Both the position numbers and the translations under genes were made by a program. A stretch of 64,000 nt of DNA from the sequence record PP274704.1. One strand, written 5' to 3'. The notes below the pieces were generated by a model that saw nothing but the letters and a program-made list of their open reading frames with translations, was not told the DNA's origin and made no database searches. The stretch comes from Escherichia phage ECp13. Numbering within the stretch: position 1 is the stretch's first letter; the number at the start of each line of letters is the position of its first letter. Below, piece after piece: positions 23,743-45,234 of this stretch.

Positions 23743-24771
23743 ATGTCATCAATACCTTGGATTGATAATGAGTTTGCATACCGTGCATTAGCTCATTTAC
23801 CTAAATTCACACAAGTAAATAATAGTTCAACTTTTAAATTGCGGTTTAGATGCCCTGTTTGTGGAGATTCAAAAACCGACCAAAATAAAGCCCGTGGATG
23901 GTATTATGGTGATAATAATGAAGGAAATATTCATTGTTATAACTGCAACTATCATGCACCAATCGGAATATATTTAAAGGAGTTTGAACCTGATTTATAT
24001 CGTGAGTATATCTTTGAAATAAGAAAAGAAAAAGGTAAAAGTCGTCCAGTAGAAAAACCTAAAGAACTTCCTAAACAACCTGAGAAGAAAATAATTAAAT
24101 CTCTTCCGTCATGCATTAGATTAGATAAACTGGCGGAAGACCATCCAATTATAAAATATGTAAAAGCTCGTTGTATTCCAAAGAATAAATGGAAATATCT
24201 TTGGTTTACAACCGAATGGCCTAAATTAGTTAATAGTATAGCGCCAGGAACATATAAAAAGGAAATACCTGAGCCTCGTCTTGTTATTCCAATTTATAAT
24301 GCTAACGGAAAAGCTGAGTCTTTTCAAGGACGTGCATTAAAGAAAGATGCTCCTCAAAAATATATCACCATCAAAGCTTATCCTGAGGCAACAAAAATTT
24401 ATGGAGTTGAACGGGTTAAAGATGGTGATGTATATGTTCTAGAAGGACCTATAGATTCACTTTTTATTGAAAATGGTATAGCTATTACGGGCGGTCAATT
24501 AGACCTAGAAATTGTTCCATTTAAAGATAGACGTGTATGGGTTTTAGATAATGAACCTCGTCATCCTGACACTATTAAACGAATGACTAAATTGGTCGAT
24601 GCAGGAGAAAGGGTTATGTTTTGGGACAAATCTCCCTGGAAATCAAAAGATGTTAATGATATGATTAGAAAGGAAGGTGCAACCCCTAAACAAATTATGG
24701 AATATATGAAAAATAATATTGCCCAAGGGTTGATGGCTAAAATGCGGCTATCTAAATATGCTAAGATTTAA
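23743..24771 (+). CDS. 61: DNA primase gp61
   Basis: 342 aa; Zn ribbon CPVCGDS...CYNC; TOPRIM domain. Confidence 0.9.
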   Translation: MSSIPWIDNEFAYRALAHLPKFTQVNNSSTFKLRFRCPVCGDSKTDQNKARGWYYGDNNEGNIHCYNCNYHAPIGIYLKEFEPDLYREYIFEIRKEKGKSRPVEKPKELPKQPEKKIIKSLPSCIRLDKLAEDHPIIKYVKARCIPKNKWKYLWFTTEWPKLVNSIAPGTYKKEIPEPRLVIPIYNANGKAESFQGRALKKDAPQKYITIKAYPEATKIYGVERVKDGDVYVLEGPIDSLFIENGIAITGGQLDLEIVPFKDRRVWVLDNEPRHPDTIKRMTKLVDAGERVMFWDKSPWKSKDVNDMIRKEGATPKQIMEYMKNNIAQGLMAKMRLSKYAKI

Positions 24772-24968
24772 ATTAACCCAACTAAAGCAAATGCTAAATC
24801 TACGAATGTATCAAGAGTAATTACTGGAATATTAACGCCATGAGCAATAGCAATTGGCGATAAAACAAAATTCCAGAGTAAAATTCCTACCATAGCAGAA
24901 ATAGTAAAAGCTATACGTTTTTTATTACCTTTTATGGCATTAACAAGTGCCATTAATTTTTGTACCAT
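24768..24968 (-). CDS. Hypothetical two-helix membrane protein (66 aa) on the opposite strand
   Basis: Minus-strand ATG preceded by AAGGAGG; convergent with gene 61. Confidence 0.5.
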   Translation of the reverse strand: MVQKLMALVNAIKGNKKRIAFTISAMVGILLWNFVLSPIAIAHGVNIPVITLDTFVDLAFALVGLI

Positions 24969-25006: not shown

Positions 25007-25039
25007 AATCTACTAACCCATGAATTGAAAGGAAAAATA

Positions 25040-25557
25040 ATGGCTTACTTTAATGAATGTAGTCAACTGATTGAAGGCGCTGATAAAGCTCAAAATGAAT
25101 ACTGGGATATTCTCGGCGATGAAAAAGACCCGCTGCAGGTTATGCTTGATATGCAGAAATCTCTGCAGGTTCGTTTAGCTAAAGATAAACCTGAATATAA
25201 CCGTCATCCTGATGATTTGGCTACTGCAGGTGAAGTTGTTGATTGGCTGCGTAATCAGAAAGATTATATTGATGATGAATTCCGCGAACTTCTGACTTCT
25301 CTTGGTGGTATGAGCAATGGCGAAAAAGATGCATCTGCTGTATGGAAGCTTGGAAGTCGCAACACGGTGAACGTCGTGAAACTCTGATTACTGACTTATC
25401 TCCACAAGACCAGTTGGAAATTAAATTCGAAATGATTGATATTCTTCATTTCGTTCTGAACATGTTCCAAGGTCTCGGTCTTACGGCTGAAGAAATCTTT
25501 AAACTTTATTATCTGAAAAATGCTGAAAACTTCGCTCGTCAAGACCGAGGTTATTAA
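25040..25557 (+). pseudogene. 56: dCTPase/dUTPase gp56, interrupted by apparent 1-nt deletion near 25346-25350
   Basis: Frame A ends ...ASAVWK then runs to a stop at 25387; frame B resumes (E)AWKSQ...ARQDRGY; the two pieces sum to ~172 aa, the intact length. Confidence 0.6.
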
Positions 25558-25629: not shown

Positions 25630-25875
25630 ATGGCTAGTACTCGCGGTTATGTTAATATTAAAACATTTGAGCAGAAATTAGATGGAAATAAGAAAATTGA
25701 AGGAAAGGAAATTTCTGTAGCTTTCCCTCTTTATTCTGACGTTCACAAAATTTCTGGTGCTCATTACCAGACATTCCCTTCAGAAAAAGCAGCATATACT
25801 ACTGTATACGAAGAAAATCAACGTGATGCATGGATTGCTGCAAACGAAGATCTGTGGAAAGTAACTGGTGGTTAA
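25630..25875 (+). CDS. soc: Small outer capsid protein Soc
   Basis: 81 aa; MASTRGYVNIKTFEQKLDGNKKIEGKEISVAFPLY matches remembered T4 Soc. Confidence 0.85.
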   Translation: MASTRGYVNIKTFEQKLDGNKKIEGKEISVAFPLYSDVHKISGAHYQTFPSEKAAYTTVYEENQRDAWIAANEDLWKVTGG

Positions 25876-25974: not shown

Positions 25975-26187
25975 ATGTTAAATCGTTGGATTAAACCAAA
26001 TGAAGACCTCCAGAAGGTTCTTGATAAAGCTATCTCTGATAAATGGGGTATGAAAAGCTGGGATTGTGATATCGTCACGCATTCATTCATGATGCATGCA
26101 GATGGTTCAGTCGAGTTCAATGCTGAAATGCGATACACTGACTGGGGTGGATTTCAAAGAGTCGAATTTCAAAGAGGCTTTTTGTAA
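25975..26187 (+). CDS. Hypothetical protein (70 aa)
   Basis: ORF track; GAGGAGAG SD. Confidence 0.5.
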   Translation: MLNRWIKPNEDLQKVLDKAISDKWGMKSWDCDIVTHSFMMHADGSVEFNAEMRYTDWGGFQRVEFQRGFL

Positions 26188-26307
26188 TGTTTATCTTTAA
26201 TTGGTTTAAAAGTTTCTTTACGGATTTTTTTCTCTACAACTCCCGGAGAAGGTGTAGTTCCTATTTCAAATGACTACCTTCCTTTAACTGTAGTTGAATA
26301 TGTTTAT

Positions 26308-26526
26308 ATGGGAGATGGAACAGTAGAAGCGGTTACTATGACTTATGAAGAAGCCCAGGAATATTATAAAAATCCTTGGCGCTGGTCAACACCTACATCA
26401 TCTAATGCGCAGAATACACAGTCTAGTTCTGATTCATATGACACTAATGTTCCTGTTCATGTATGGACGGGCGATTCATGTGGAAGTTCTTGTGATTCTA
26501 GTTGTTCATCTACATCTTGTGATTGA
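26308..26526 (+). CDS. Hypothetical protein (72 aa), Ser/Cys-rich C-terminus
   Basis: ORF track; tail [18 protein letters not shown]. Confidence 0.45.
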
Positions 26527-27206: not shown

Positions 27207-27359
27207 ATGACATTAGAAGAGGCTAAAGCTAAAGCAAACGAAGCACTGGATTTGCTTCTTAAAATCGGTAGTAAAATGATGGAAGAAAATGAGAAATATA
27301 TCCAGGAAAACAAAATTCCTGACGGCCCATTAGTAGGCAAGAGGAAATCACATGATTGA
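27207..27359 (+). CDS. Hypothetical protein (50 aa)
   Basis: ATG ORF bridging the gap between flanking ORFs; below track cut-off. Confidence 0.3.
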
Positions 27360-27822
27360 AGTAGCAAAACGATATTCAATAGAATTTATGTCTAAAGAAG
27401 GTAAATCAGTAAATACACTTAATAAAAATTGCTCATTAATTATTCCTTTAGCAGAAAATCCGGATCGTTTAATTAAAGATATAAAAGAAAGAAAATATCC
27501 AGAAAATGTTATTCTAGTTATAAAGCATACTGAAGATATTTTGCATAATACAGATTCACCGTTTTCTTCTTCTGAAGCTTTAACTATTAAAGGCTATAAA
27601 AGAGCTCATGAATATAGTCTTTTTGACCTGTTTGAAGACGATAAAGTTAAATTAGCTAGTCAACCTTCTAAAAGTAAAACATTCATTATTGAAGATATTA
27701 AAGATATAAATGCATTTATTAAGATGGTCTGGGCTCATTTTGATGTTGGACTACGCTGGAGAATGTCCGAAGAAGAAAGAAAGATTATTGAAGCTAATCG
27801 TCATTTTGGTTTTTATCGCTAG
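27352..27822 (+). CDS. Hypothetical protein (156 aa)
   Basis: ORF with GAGGAAA SD; no motif recognised. Confidence 0.55.
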
Positions 27823-31801: not shown

Positions 31802-32062
31802 ATGATTAACATCAATTCAAAATATTTAAATCGTCTAATAGATGGTATAAAGAAGCACACTGATAAGCAAGATAACCTCAGTGTTATGGTAACAGGAGCT
31901 GAGCTCCTTTATAAGCTTAATCTTATAAGTGATACTATACTAGCAATTAAACGAATTGAAAAACAATCATATCACAGTAATACAGACACGGTAATTACGC
32001 TAGATGAAAGTGTCTGTAAGCTGTTGATTAAATTTGAGGAAGCTATTCGTGGAAATAACTAA
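31802..32062 (+). CDS. Hypothetical protein (86 aa), member 1 of a tandem paralog trio
   Basis: ORF track; C-terminal region resembles the next two ORFs. Confidence 0.5.
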   Translation: MININSKYLNRLIDGIKKHTDKQDNLSVMVTGAELLYKLNLISDTILAIKRIEKQSYHSNTDTVITLDESVCKLLIKFEEAIRGNN

Positions 32063-32294
32063 AGACCAGTTTTATCTGCTTCAAGATAAAGTGAGCGAAA
32101 TTTATGAAATAGCTTATAGTAAAAATCGTACAAATGTAAAAATTGAATCAGGCAAGTTAATGCTTCAATTGGAAGAAATTGAACGAGATTTGATTGCGTT
32201 AGAATTCTTTTGCGGTGAAGTGAAAACTGTTACAATCAGTGATTATGTTTTAGGTGAAATTAGCCATCTTTATAAGGCGGTTATTAATGATTGA
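32034..32294 (+). CDS. Hypothetical protein, paralog 2 (start uncertain: TTG 32034 or GTG 32049)
   Basis: ORF track; ...LQLEEIERDLIALEFF...VTISDYVLGEISHLYKAV. Confidence 0.4.
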   Translation: MRKLFVEITKDQFYLLQDKVSEIYEIAYSKNRTNVKIESGKLMLQLEEIERDLIALEFFCGEVKTVTISDYVLGEISHLYKAVIND

Positions 32295-32529
32295 ATTAAG
32301 TTTGCATCAGTTTAAGTCTCTTATGGCAAATGTTAAAGCTGTCATTCAAGAAAATTCAGGACCTGATAATGTTACTATTCGCGAAAAAGCTTTAAAGATA
32401 GTATACAGTCTTGAAGAGATACAAAAAGATATTGAATCTATGGCAAAATTTATTGATGAGCCCATTAATAAAGTTTATATCCAAGATTATACTGTAGGTC
32501 AAATTCGCGATTTAGCGAGGAAAATTTAA
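32287..32529 (+). CDS. Hypothetical protein, paralog 3 (80 aa from ATG 32287; ORF track starts 32254)
   Basis: ...SLEEIQKDIESMAKF...VYIQDYTVGQIRDLARKI. Confidence 0.4.
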   Translation: MIELSLHQFKSLMANVKAVIQENSGPDNVTIREKALKIVYSLEEIQKDIESMAKFIDEPINKVYIQDYTVGQIRDLARKI

Positions 32530-33275: not shown

Positions 33276-33785
33276 ATGAAAATTTATCGTGTTGAATCAT
33301 CGTTTAGTATTCTTGATTATGAAGATGCTATAACAATACGTCGAAATCTTTGTGTTCAAATAACGCCGTACAGGAGTATAATAGATTCATGGAGCGAAGA
33401 GTGGCTATTACGTGTAGGTTATAGTAGACCTAATTTTATGCATCATAGCGATAATAATAAAAGAATTCCTCTTCCGCGCGAAGACAAATTATTAGTTAAA
33501 AATGCTAATATAGCAATTAATACTAAATTTGAGAAAGAGGAATATGTAGGCGTAGATCACTATATTCCAGGATGGTTTATAGCTCTTTATCATTTTGCTT
33601 TCGCTAGTGAATATGATATGATGAGATGGTTCACACGAGAAGAGCGTGAAGAATTATCTTCTAAAGGATTTTATCTCGCTGTATACGAAGTTCCTGAAGA
33701 TGAAGTTATCATTGGCGGACACCAAGTAATGTTCCGTAAATCCCATGCTGAACTTGTAGATTTTATTGAAATGAGACAATTATGA
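33276..33785 (+). CDS. Hypothetical protein (169 aa)
   Basis: ATG 33276 with GAGGATAA SD; track start 33237 is TTG inside the promoter -10. Confidence 0.55.
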   Translation: MKIYRVESSFSILDYEDAITIRRNLCVQITPYRSIIDSWSEEWLLRVGYSRPNFMHHSDNNKRIPLPREDKLLVKNANIAINTKFEKEEYVGVDHYIPGWFIALYHFAFASEYDMMRWFTREEREELSSKGFYLAVYEVPEDEVIIGGHQVMFRKSHAELVDFIEMRQL

Positions 33786-34324
33786 AATTTAATTATAATC
33801 CTGAATACACCCCAAATCCTATAGATAAAATATTTGATATGGATACAGCAAGCATGTACGGCACTCTTGTTAAACCATTAGAAATTAAGGAAACCTTTAT
33901 GACTGCTCGGATCATCGAAATTGGCAAAACCTACAAACTGGTTGAAACTGAAATTAAAACTACTGAACTAAGTTTGGGTTATAAAGCATTGACCAGTGTT
34001 TTGGGTGAAGGCGAGTTTGTGGTTAAAAGTTTTTCAAAAAGTAATTGGCATGATAAGAATAAAGCTTACGTGATTCGAGCACAACGCTTAGATAATGATG
34101 AAGTAATTAAAACTATAGTCTTTGAAGTAGAGCTTATCCTCTTCCAAGAATGCGATCCTACTGACCTTCTAACTCGTGCTGTAGCTATCAAGACTCCATT
34201 TGTTTCGGTCTATGGTTGGGTAACAGACCAGTGGATTGAAGATGGTGTTGAACTTCTGAACGTGGTTCATGCAGGCGATTTTAGCGTAGTACCTCGTAGT
34301 GCAGTGGTAGCTATTTTGAATTAA
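33782..34324 (+). CDS. Hypothetical protein (180 aa), paralog of 34401..34898
   Basis: C-termini align: VTDQWIEDGVELLNVVHAGDFSVVP vs ITDQWVEDGVKLYNAVFLGTYKVIP. Confidence 0.55.
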   Translation: MKFNYNPEYTPNPIDKIFDMDTASMYGTLVKPLEIKETFMTARIIEIGKTYKLVETEIKTTELSLGYKALTSVLGEGEFVVKSFSKSNWHDKNKAYVIRAQRLDNDEVIKTIVFEVELILFQECDPTDLLTRAVAIKTPFVSVYGWVTDQWIEDGVELLNVVHAGDFSVVPRSAVVAILN

Positions 34325-34358: not shown

Positions 34359-34400
34359 TCCCGTGGAGTATAAAATCTTTTTAACAAGTGAGAGATAACT

Positions 34401-34898
34401 ATGATTATTAATATTGGTGAAATTGCTCGTGTATCTGATAAATCCCGTTCTAAAGCAGCAGGAAAATTGGTTGAAATTGTAAGCATTCAGCTTAAACACG
34501 GTGTTAAAGATGAAGATTCTGAAGTAAAAGTGCGTATCATTCCTAAAGATGGAAAATCTAAACCTCAGTTTGGCTATGTTCGTGCGAAATTTATTGAGTC
34601 TGCGTTTTTGAAAGCTGTTCCTGCTAAAGGAATTGAAACGATTGATACTTCGCATGTAGGCGTAGACTTTAAGTGGAAACTCGGTCAAGCTATTAAGTTC
34701 GTTGCTCCTTATGAATTCGAATTTACTGAAGATGAGGAAGGGGTTGTTCAAAAACACCGTACTCGCGCTATGTGTGCATACATTACCGATCAGTGGGTAG
34801 AAGATGGCGTTAAGTTGTACAACGCGGTATTTTTAGGAACATACAAAGTCATTCCAGAAAGTTGGATTAAACACTATAGCAAAGCCCGCTGTGCATAA
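34401..34898 (+). CDS. Hypothetical protein (165 aa), paralog of 33782..34324
   Basis: ORF with GAGAGATAA SD. Confidence 0.55.
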   Translation: MIINIGEIARVSDKSRSKAAGKLVEIVSIQLKHGVKDEDSEVKVRIIPKDGKSKPQFGYVRAKFIESAFLKAVPAKGIETIDTSHVGVDFKWKLGQAIKFVAPYEFEFTEDEEGVVQKHRTRAMCAYITDQWVEDGVKLYNAVFLGTYKVIPESWIKHYSKARCA

Positions 34899-38886: not shown

Positions 38887-41063
38887 ATGATTATCACCAC
38901 TGAAAAAGAAACAATTCTTGGTAATGGTTCTAAATCAAAAGCATTTAGCATCACAGCATCTCCTAAAGTATTCAAAATTCTGTCATCTGATTTGTATACA
39001 AACAAGATTCGCGCAGTAGTCCGTGAATTGATTACCAACATGATTGATGCCCATGCTCTCAATGGAAATCCTGAAAAATTTATCATTCAAGTTCCAGGAC
39101 GATTAGATCCGCGATTTGTTTGTCGAGATTTTGGTCCAGGTATGAGCGATTTTGATATTCAAGGTGATGATAATTCTCCTGGGTTGTATAATTCATACTT
39201 TAGTTCATCTAAGGCTGAATCTAACGATTTCATTGGTGGATTTGGTTTAGGTTCTAAATCTCCGTTTAGTTATACTGATACATTTAGTATTACTTCATAT
39301 CATAAAGGCGAAATTCGTGGTTATGTAGCTTACATGGATGGCGATGGTCCACAAATTAAACCTACATTTGTAAAAGAAATGGGTCCAGATGATAAAACTG
39401 GTATTGAAATCGTAGTTCCAGTTGAAGAAAAAGACTTTAGAAACTTTGCTTATGAAGTTTCTTATATCATGCGACCATTCAAAGATTTAGCTATCATTAA
39501 TGGTCTTGACCGCGAAATTGATTATTTTCCGGATTTTGATGACTATTACGGCGTAAATCCAGAAAGATACTGGCCAGATCGTGGTGGATTGTATGCTATC
39601 TATGGCGGTATTGTTTATCCTATCGATGGTGTTATTAGAGACCGTAACTGGTTAAGCATCCGTAATGAAGTGAATTACATTAAGTTTCCAATGGGTTCAC
39701 TTGATATTGCTCCATCACGCGAAGCTCTTTCACTAGATGATCGTACTCGTAAAAATATTATTGAGCGTGTTAAAGAGCTTAGTGAGAAGGCATTCAATGA
39801 AGATGTAAAACGATTTAAAGAATCTACATCTCCTCGTCATACATACCGTGAATTGATGAAGATGGGATATTCTGCTCGAGATTATATGATTAGTAATTCA
39901 GTCAAATTTACGACTAAAAATCTGTCATATAAGAAGATGCAAAGCATGTTTGAACCAGATAGTAAGCTATGCAATGCAGGAGTTGTGTATGAAGTAAATC
40001 TTGACCCTCGACTGAAACGCATTAAGCAAAGTCATGAAACTTCAGCCGTTGCATCAAGTTATCGTCTGTTCGGTATTAATACAACAAAAATTAATATCGT
40101 TATTGATAATATTAAAAATCGCGTTAATATTGTCCGTGGATTAGCGCATGCGTTAGATGATAAAGAATTTAATAACACTTTAAATATTCATCACAACGAG
40201 CGTCTTCTGTTTATTAATCCGGAAGTAGAATCGCAGATTGATTTACTCCCTGATATTATGGCAATGTTTGAAAGTGATGAAGTTAACTTCATCACTTGTC
40301 AGAAATTGAAGCTTTAGTTAAAAGTTATATTCCGAAGGCAGTTAAAAGTAAAGCTCCTCGTCCTAAAGCTGCTACTGCGTTTAAGTTTGAAATTAAAGAC
40401 GGGCGCTGGGAAAAAGAGGAACTGTTTACACTTACGTCAGAAGCAGATGAAATTACTGGTTATGTAGCATACATGCATCGTTCTGATATTTTCTCTATGG
40501 ATGGTACTACATCGCTCTGTAATCCGTCTACGAGTATTTTGACTCGTATGGCTAATCTTATTGGCATTAATGAATTTTATGTTATTCGTCCACTTTTGCA
40601 GAAAAAGGTAAAAGAACTTGGTCAGTGCCAATGTATTTTTGAAACTCTACGTGATTTATATGTAGATGCTTTTGATGATGTAGATTATGATAAGTATGTA
40701 GGTTATTCAAGTTCAGCTAAACGATATATTGATAAAATTATCAAGTATCCTGAGTTAGATTTTATGATGAAGTACTTCAGTGTAGATGAAGTTTCCGAAG
40801 AATATACACGACTCGCTAATATGGTTAGTTCATTACAGGGTGTATATTTCAACTGTGGAAAAGATACCATCGGTCATGACATCTGGACAGTAACTAATCT
40901 TTTTGATGTATTATCAAACAATGCTTCAAAAAACAGTGATAAAATGGTTACTGAGTTTACTAAGAAATTCCGTATTGTTTCCGACTTCATCGGTTATCGC
41001 AACTCTTTAAGTGATGATGAAGTTTCCCAAATCGCTAAAACTATGAAGGCCCTTGCGGCCTAA
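38887..41063 (+). pseudogene. rIIA: rIIA, split by apparent 1-nt deletion between 40284 and 40296
   Basis: ORF 38887..40317 (476 aa) plus ORF 40296..41063 (255 aa) together match remembered 725 aa rIIA; frame changes at ...FESDEV / [10 protein letters not shown]. Confidence 0.7.
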
Positions 41064-42274: not shown

Positions 42275-42604
42275 ATGATTTATTGTATGAATATCGGTGA
42301 TTCCGACATAAAAGAGATTAAACTGCACGGAAATCATCATGCTAATATTGTGTACTGCAATAAATTTGAGTTTGGTCACGAAAAACTTGGGTTTCTTTAC
42401 TGCAATGATATTATAGTCATGGATAAAAAGGAACTCGATGAACTTGACCATGAGTCTTTAGATGAAAATGACCGAATTTATTACGGCACTCTTAAAGTAT
42501 ATAACGCTTATCTCAGCGGTAAAAAGGAAAGTCTAAATGCAGAAAACGAATCCGGGTTTACAGAGACTATTTCAGATTCCGACATTTACCCTATCGAACA
42601 GTGA
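42275..42604 (+). CDS. Hypothetical protein (109 aa); 3' end overlaps denB by 68 nt
   Basis: ORF track; AAGGAAAAA SD. Confidence 0.45.
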   Translation: MIYCMNIGDSDIKEIKLHGNHHANIVYCNKFEFGHEKLGFLYCNDIIVMDKKELDELDHESLDENDRIYYGTLKVYNAYLSGKKESLNAENESGFTETISDSDIYPIEQ

Positions 42605-43094
42605 CTTGACTAGTGAAATGAAGGTCAAAATTGCTGATACAGCAAGATACTCTTTAAAACAAAATCCAAATCAGGATAAAGCAGAAGTTATTGAAAGATG
42701 TCGTATCGCGGTGTACGCAGAATTTTTTGTAGCAGATTGGCTAAGTGGGTATGTTAACAAAGGCCAAGAAGATGTTAATGACCCGTATACATATGCATGG
42801 GATGTATTGGCGCATCCAAGATACTGCGGGCTTCGTGTAGAAGTTAAGACACATCAAACTGACTCACGTTGGATTTCTGTAACAACAGGATGCAGCGGAG
42901 AGTATCCATATGGTTCTGGAATAAATCTAGGGCCCATTCTGAATCATCAGGTCGCTGACTGTATAATTATATTCAACACTAAAGAAATTCATCCAGGTGT
43001 CATCCAGTACACTCCGAAGTTCATTGGTGATAGAGAAGACCTTCGTAAGGTTGTAAGAAAAAGCAACTACAACGGATGGTATCTTTCCATTTAA
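42537..43094 (+). CDS. denB: Endonuclease IV DenB (probable, by length and position)
   Basis: 185 aa ATG ORF with AGGAAA SD between rIIB and ndd. Confidence 0.55.
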   Translation: MQKTNPGLQRLFQIPTFTLSNSDLTSEMKVKIADTARYSLKQNPNQDKAEVIERCRIAVYAEFFVADWLSGYVNKGQEDVNDPYTYAWDVLAHPRYCGLRVEVKTHQTDSRWISVTTGCSGEYPYGSGINLGPILNHQVADCIIIFNTKEIHPGVIQYTPKFIGDREDLRKVVRKSNYNGWYLSI

Positions 43095-45075: not shown

Positions 45076-45234
45076 ATGAATATCGCAAAATTATTAGGAG
45101 TTATTTCATTTATTTGTTGGATAGTAGCATGTGTTTTAACTATCTGTATCGATGCTAGCAGTGTGTTTTCACAAGCTTTAGCCCAGGGTATGTGTGCATA
45201 TTTAACATTTGTGTTGTTATCTACTAATGATTAA
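45076..45234 (+). CDS. ac: Ac (acridine sensitivity) membrane protein, probable
   Basis: 52 aa hydrophobic ORF with GAGGAAAA SD between stp and 52. Confidence 0.6.
   Translation: MNIAKLLGVISFICWIVACVLTICIDASSVFSQALAQGMCAYLTFVLLSTND

Follow-up and report, generated by a model that had tools for sequence, protein, structure and literature searches.

A private one-base gap interrupts gene 56, the dCTPase/dUTPase gene, in the sequence record of Escherichia phage ECp13 and is probably an error in that record

We analyzed a stretch of 64,000 nucleotides of Escherichia phage ECp13 (PP274704.1), hereafter the window. Gene 56 lies there on the plus strand between gene 61 (primase; gp61 encoded at 23743-24771) and soc (25630-25875), and the order gene 61 - gene 56 - soc is also annotated in Sfk20, EC121, P922, pSs-1, and ime09. 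Between gene 61 and gene 56, the minus strand carries an antisense ORF for a hydrophobic protein of 66 aa (24768-24968) that shares 4 bases with the end of gene 61. This ORF is conserved in all relatives, where it is annotated as hypothetical (RB69ORF029w-like).

Gene 56 starts at the ATG at 25040, downstream of a Shine-Dalgarno region, AAAGGAA (25028..25034), whose predicted pairing with the 3' end of the 16S rRNA has an energy of -5.6 kcal/mol. Its native codons 1-103 (MAYFNEC…GEKDASAVWK; 25040..25348) correspond to positions 1-80 of the phrog_173 profile and show 100% identity with the first 103 residues of gp56 in the relatives. After codon 103 (AAG, 25346-25348), the frame continues through a tail of 12 out-of-frame codons (LGSRNTVNVVKL) and closes with a TGA at 25385-25387, the whole tail spanning 25349..25387. 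The -1 frame, which we call frame B, is open from 25342. Native gp56 resumes in this frame with the TGG at 25351 (W105) and ends with the TAA at 25555-25557, such that 25351..25557 holds native codons 105-172 (WKSQHGERRE…ARQDRGY) and the stop, a segment that matches PF08761 and the C-terminal part of phrog_173. Alignment with the relatives places the cause at 25349..25350, where one C of a CC doublet is absent. The deletion puts an internal ATG (25342..25344) in frame with the 3' part of the gene, resulting in a second ORF, 25342-25557, which reads MEA-WKSQHGERRETLITDLSPQDQLEIKF…ARQDRGY. Joined, the pieces amount to 103 + 1 + 68 = 172 aa. The initial annotation, made from the sequence alone, had described a dCTPase/dUTPase gene 56 with an apparent -1 frameshift, whose first frame runs through ASAVWK and 12 wrong-frame codons to a stop at 25387, whose second frame ends in ARQDRGY, and whose pieces sum to the intact length of about 172 aa. 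These coordinates are accurate to the base; the identity of the gene is borne out by its position and by the 100% identity of the repaired protein to that of relatives, which is indeed 172 aa long; and the alignment gives the frameshift as a deletion of one base that a -1 shift would repair. Both fragments have been deposited verbatim at NCBI from the 164,862-bp ECp13 contig, as WWE96872.1 (115 aa) and WWE96873.1 (71 aa). They are labelled 'hypothetical protein LHLCCAPJ_00198/00199', names with Prokka-style tags which indicate that the record was annotated automatically and not curated.

The split gene can be identified as gene 56 of a Tequatrovirus, encoding a dCTPase/dUTPase of the all-alpha NTP pyrophosphohydrolases. 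After repair, gp56 matches phrog_173 (NTP pyrophosphohydrolase) with E = 1.5e-46 over both halves of the profile, and PF08761 (dUTPase_2) with 29.2 bits for a cut-off of 22.9, whereas either fragment by itself matches only its own half of the profiles. Homologues of gp56 make up 234 protein clusters, virtually all of 171-175 aa and none of them split. Members of this family are encoded by a single uninterrupted ORF of 171-175 codons, in contrast to the pair of overlapping ORFs in the window, 25040-25387 and 25342-25557. In an alignment of 33 sequences reaching down to 68% identity, the motif V101-W102-K103-x-W105-K106 is invariant, and the missing base falls in its sole variable codon (104). 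All the invariant residues of the family (D79, E80, E83; V101, W102, K103; W105, K106; D124-E131, D134, H137) are encoded in the window, divided over the two fragments. The 5' fragment lacks all of them from W105 on, including the block D124-Q-L-E-I-K-F-E…D134…H137, and the lesion, taken at face value, would be inactivating. AlphaFold predicts six helices for intact gp56 (mean pLDDT 84), and the break falls in helix 98-114 of this model, directly past a low-confidence loop formed by residues 92-99. The best matches of this model in the PDB are the mammalian all-alpha dCTPases DCTPP1/RS21-C6. These matches are weak (E ~0.2, probability 0.87-0.89), yet functionally coherent with gp56.

We then compared the gene with its closest records, namely Shigella phage Sfk20 (99.2% identity), Escherichia phage EC121 (98.8%), and phage P922 (96.5%), over 601 bases. 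At the break, the AAGCCTTGG of these relatives is reduced to AAGCTTGG in the window, i.e., one C of the CC pair is lost after 25349. This is the single gap in the alignment of gene 56 (relatives GTATGGAAGCCTTGGAAG, window GTATGGAAGCTTGGAAG), and codon 104 of the relatives is CCT, for proline. The base is also present in pSs-1 and ime09, which leaves gene 56 at a net -1 relative to 4/4 of the reference genomes used below. Comparison with other gene 56 sequences, as proposed in the initial annotation, thus brought out one extra base in all five relatives. When the C is restored, the gene encodes a protein of 172 aa that matches gp56 of Sfk20, EC121, and P922 at 100% identity, and the same sequence was found on 207 contigs, including those of RB68, RB32, and ime09. 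The initial annotation had placed the missing base in a short repeat. A base is indeed missing, but it sits outside the repeat, in the spacer that separates two TGGAAG hexamers, each of which encodes a W-K pair of the invariant W-K-x-W-K motif. The gap creates a HindIII site (AAGCTT, 25346-25351), which is the only AAGCTT between 24374 and 27000. The rest of the gene appears free of decay: its only private substitution is synonymous, and 3' of the break (25351-25557), every difference from the relatives is synonymous in frame B, including 7/7 of the DNA differences from P922.

The deletion does not occur in any of the 513 phage records that match, as determined with a query of 81 bases across the site, for which no record matched at 100% and the best seven of the 513 differed solely by the extra base. 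The ECp13 record itself is apparently not part of the collection searched, where the top identity over 25 kb is 97.7%. ESh34 and ECML-123-2, which have no annotation beneath the match, both have an intact gene 56. An exact 25-mer over the deletion had no match in IMG/VR, the JGI metagenomes, or the GTDB genomes. Since the intact 26-mer is likewise missing from IMG/VR, the negative result in that database carries little weight, and the informative search for other carriers is the one among phage records. Exact look-ups of both gene 56 fragments, of the rIIA fragment, and of a strain-specific protein of 156 aa (27352-27822) found no independent assembly or reads of the strain. Logan contigs do encode gp61, but one that is only ~98% identical to that of the window. 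A literature search found no publications on phage ECp13. In JE01 and FL08 (locus 640-1290), a free-standing homing endonuclease gene lies between the promoter region of gene 56 and gene 56 itself; the window has none. We considered this endonuclease as a precedent for the split gene and rejected it, because it lies upstream of an intact gene 56.

To put the gap in the context of the quality of the window, we used four reference genomes (Sfk20, pSs-1, ime09, and EC121). Private substitutions comprise 135 synonymous and 51 non-synonymous changes, a ratio indicative of normal purifying selection. There are five private net indels in the 64 kb, which break the frame of three genes (gene 56, mrh.1, and rIIA): -1 at 25349 in gene 56, +1 at 26225-26231 in mrh.1, an in-frame +9 at 34750, -1 at 40287 in rIIA, and an in-frame -3 at 45077. 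The remaining single-base differences from Sfk20 are intergenic and common to other relatives. In mrh.1 (26187-26526), the window has a run of seven T where Sfk20, EC121, P922, pSs-1, and ime09 have six. This extra T breaks the ORF of 112 aa, of which 26308-26526 is left open (residues 41-112), and the run is 880 bases away from the gap in gene 56. The T7 allele was also found in one low-quality IMG/VR contig (90% identity, 112 gaps). The changes in gene 56 (C2 to C1) and in mrh.1 (T6 to T7) both read as plain homopolymer-length changes. Such changes are typical of consensus errors in flow-based and nanopore sequencing, and also of spontaneous slippage.

Two further regions of the window differ from some of the relatives. 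The dexA.1 region (32034-32529), a single ORF of 164 aa in ime09, is divided in the window between the ORFs 32034-32294 and 32254-32529, which overlap. The same split is found in pSs-1, Sfk20, and EC121, which have two annotated genes here, and it is lineage-wide rather than private. Near motB, the segments 34392-34898 and 33770-34324 have many private non-synonymous differences from Sfk20, pSs-1, and EC121, along with the +9 at 34750, and this patch looks like a mosaic or recombinant segment rather than the product of point mutation.

The lesion in rIIA is of another kind. The gene is split into ORF fragments at 38887-40317 and 40296-41063. Its sequence at the lesion is AAGTGATGAAGTTAAC-TTCAT C A C TT, compared with AAGTGATGAAGTTAAC A TTCAT T A T TT in the relatives. 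Within 8 bases, the window has lost one A and has C in place of T twice, and all three changes are private. Together they complete a perfect palindrome of 26 bp (40272-40297, AAGTGATGAAGTTAACTTCATCACTT) at a site where JLBYU24, SA21RB, ime09, and Sfk20 conserve an imperfect inverted repeat. None of 498 records has the lesion or any of its intermediates. rIIA is dispensable, and rII-type mutants are readily picked. Template-switch frameshifts at quasipalindromes were first described for rIIB of T4 (Ripley 1982, as reviewed in PMC7202029). Since three concerted changes making a perfect palindrome are the signature of such a template switch, the rIIA lesion is probably a real mutation of this type, and a random read error is very unlikely to account for it. 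For the deletion in gene 56, we found no inverted or direct copy of the junction-spanning 7-10-mers within 1.5 kb on each side, apart from the trivial 6-bp AAGCTT. We thus rejected a templated (quasipalindrome or template-switch) origin of this deletion, for which there is no nearby copy of the junction.

The dCTPase of T4 excludes dCTP from phage DNA, and viable dCTPase mutants have been described solely in combination with defects in EndoIV (denB) and Alc (PMC6071114); a scheme of the hydroxymethylcytosine pathway including the dCTPase is available in PMC11078745. In the window, denB (42537-43094, 185 aa) is intact, as is ndd. No disruption was flagged in gene 42, a-gt, or the gene of the beta-glucosyl-HMC-alpha-glucosyltransferase when the reference ORFs of the four reference genomes were compared with the ORFs of the window, while alc and denA lie outside of it. 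With denB intact and gene 42 and the glucosyltransferase genes undisrupted, the gene content does not support a cytosine-DNA lifestyle for ECp13. An adaptive loss of the hydroxymethylcytosine pathway, giving a cytosine-DNA variant like the laboratory T4 dC strains, would have the broken gene 56 alone in its favor, and we regard it as scarcely credible. The view of the initial annotation that gp56 is normally indispensable in such phages, and that a real lesion would be surprising, agrees with both the published mutants and the intact denB.

A broken gene could still be expressed if the ribosome was able to cross the gap. In such a case of programmed recoding, either a -1 shift within the overlap of the 0 and -1 frames (25342-25387) or an 8-nt hop that leaves the first UGG-AAG and lands on the second would yield full-length, or nearly full-length, gp56. 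The second possibility stems from the duplication of UGGAAG 8 nt apart, which in principle provides matched take-off and landing codons for a tRNA. Yet the codons of the 0 frame at 25340-25387 (GTA TGG AAG CTT GGA AGT CGC AAC ACG GTG AAC GTC GTG AAA CTC TGA), read one by one, contain no slippery X XXY YYZ heptamer in the overlap. We found no stimulatory RNA structure in the 141 nt from 25320, whose minimum free energy of -27.8 kcal/mol is no better than that of shuffled sequences (mean -27.5 kcal/mol, z = -0.09), nor a long homopolymer for transcriptional slippage at the break. A bypass of the T4 gene 60 type has a stop after the take-off codon, here replaced by CUU, and a stem-loop, whereas no structure stands out here. 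All relatives have the hexamer repeat, in frame, where it simply codes for W-K-x-W-K, and the interruption that a programmed -1 frameshift would have to conserve is private among the 513 records. The ribosomal slippage raised as a possibility in the initial annotation thus finds no heptamer, RNA structure, or conservation at the site, and recoding is extremely improbable. Re-initiation would be another source of the C-terminal part. The internal ATG at 25342 has no Shine-Dalgarno sequence or ribosome-binding site: its pairing with the anti-Shine-Dalgarno (-0.9 kcal/mol) equals the median of the 1588 AUGs of the window, to be compared with -5.6 for the true start at 25040.

Two readings of the gap carry more weight. 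The best supported one, and in our view the probable one, is a homopolymer-length error in the record, whose technical cause we infer from the sequence. One C of the CC doublet of codon 104 would have been lost by an undercall or a consensus error during sequencing or assembly, the ORF of gene 56 would consequently show up as fragments of 115 aa and 71 aa, and the live ECp13 would have an intact gene 56 of 172 codons and normal hydroxymethylcytosine DNA. This reading draws its support from the conjunction of a deletion that is private among 513 records, an essential gene in a genome with an intact denB, and a second private homopolymer indel 880 bases away, in mrh.1. Essentiality argues for an error because technical errors ignore it and real fixed mutations do not, and in a lysate that is being propagated, a frameshifted allele of a conditional-lethal gene cannot rise to be the consensus. 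Against it, the rest of the window looks clean, as its 64 kb contain only three private indels that break a frame; the rIIA frameshift is almost certainly real, so not all frameshifts in the record are technical; and a homopolymer of just two C is a weak candidate for an error that persists into the consensus. The initial annotation had also suspected a sequencing or assembly error, a suspicion that the private deletion, the intact denB, and the indel in mrh.1 make likely, and had taken a second single-base indel as a hint of it. An indel is indeed present in rIIA at 40287, but it belongs to a templated event of three changes instead of being a lone indel or an error.

The deletion could, on the other hand, be genuine: a spontaneous -1 slippage in the CC doublet would have left a null or strongly hypomorphic gene, in a stock that is defective, hitch-hiking, or living on trace activity. 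We find this rather unlikely, but it is kept alive by the clean substitution pattern of the window and by the apparently real mutation in rIIA, i.e., at least one private frameshift of the same genome which suggests that the stock accumulated real lesions. It is also compatible with the two fragments jointly keeping every conserved residue, with only the variable position 104 left out, and with the predicted position of the break directly past the loop 92-99. It is difficult to reconcile with the conditional-lethal nature of gene 56, with the additional need of dC-DNA phages for defects in denB and alc (PMC6071114) when denB is intact here, with a 5' fragment deprived of the invariant block from D124 to H137, with an internal ATG lacking a Shine-Dalgarno sequence, and with the fact that no other record or homologue is split. 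Should the deletion be real and ECp13 viable, gp56 might work as two fragments assembled non-covalently, or be made by a low level of -1 shifting or 8-nt hopping, a combination that we deem very unlikely. For the two-fragment case, we propose that the partners would be residues 1-103 with the 12-residue tail, and MEA followed by residues 105-172, the latter produced by re-initiation at the ATG at 25342 after termination at the UGA at 25385.

Compared with known systems, the locus resembles T4 gene 56 (phrog_173; PF08761) in its position between gene 61 and soc and, after repair, in having the same 172 aa as RB68, RB32, ime09, Sfk20, and EC121. It differs from this family in the 1-nt deletion that breaks the ORF after codon 103, as no other member examined is interrupted. 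The amber mutants of T4 gene 56 (amE51 and others) and the T4 dC strains (56-, denB-, alc-) also have a gp56 truncated before the conserved C-terminal helices. However, these are conditional-lethal laboratory mutants that need suppressors or defects in denB and alc, whereas ECp13 has an intact denB and its record is that of a natural isolate. Genes in pieces are known in T4-related phages, as in the case of genes 39 and 60 of T4 and of nrdA of Aeh1, split by mobE. These splits arose from inserted DNA, have start signals of their own for each piece, and are stable in their lineage. The likeness with gene 56 of ECp13 lies in two adjacent ORFs that jointly cover one protein, but here the split is due to a deletion of 1 nt, the second piece has no ribosome-binding site, and the arrangement is private to one record. 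Finally, the frameshifts templated by quasipalindromes (T4 rIIB; Ripley 1982, reviewed in PMC7202029) have a counterpart in the rIIA lesion of ECp13, while the deletion in gene 56 is without such a template.

We describe here no new biological feature, but a gap of one base, private to this record, in a known gene. If a split or trace gp56 were truly at work, a trace of the enzyme, or its two fragments, would suffice to exclude cytosine from T-even DNA. A real deletion, which is unlikely, would mean that a T-even phage lives with a broken dCTPase while retaining denB, in conflict with the accepted logic of the hydroxymethylcytosine pathway. If the gap is an error, as we think probable, the ECp13 record mis-annotates an essential and well-known enzyme as two hypothetical proteins, whose fragments are already in the protein databases.
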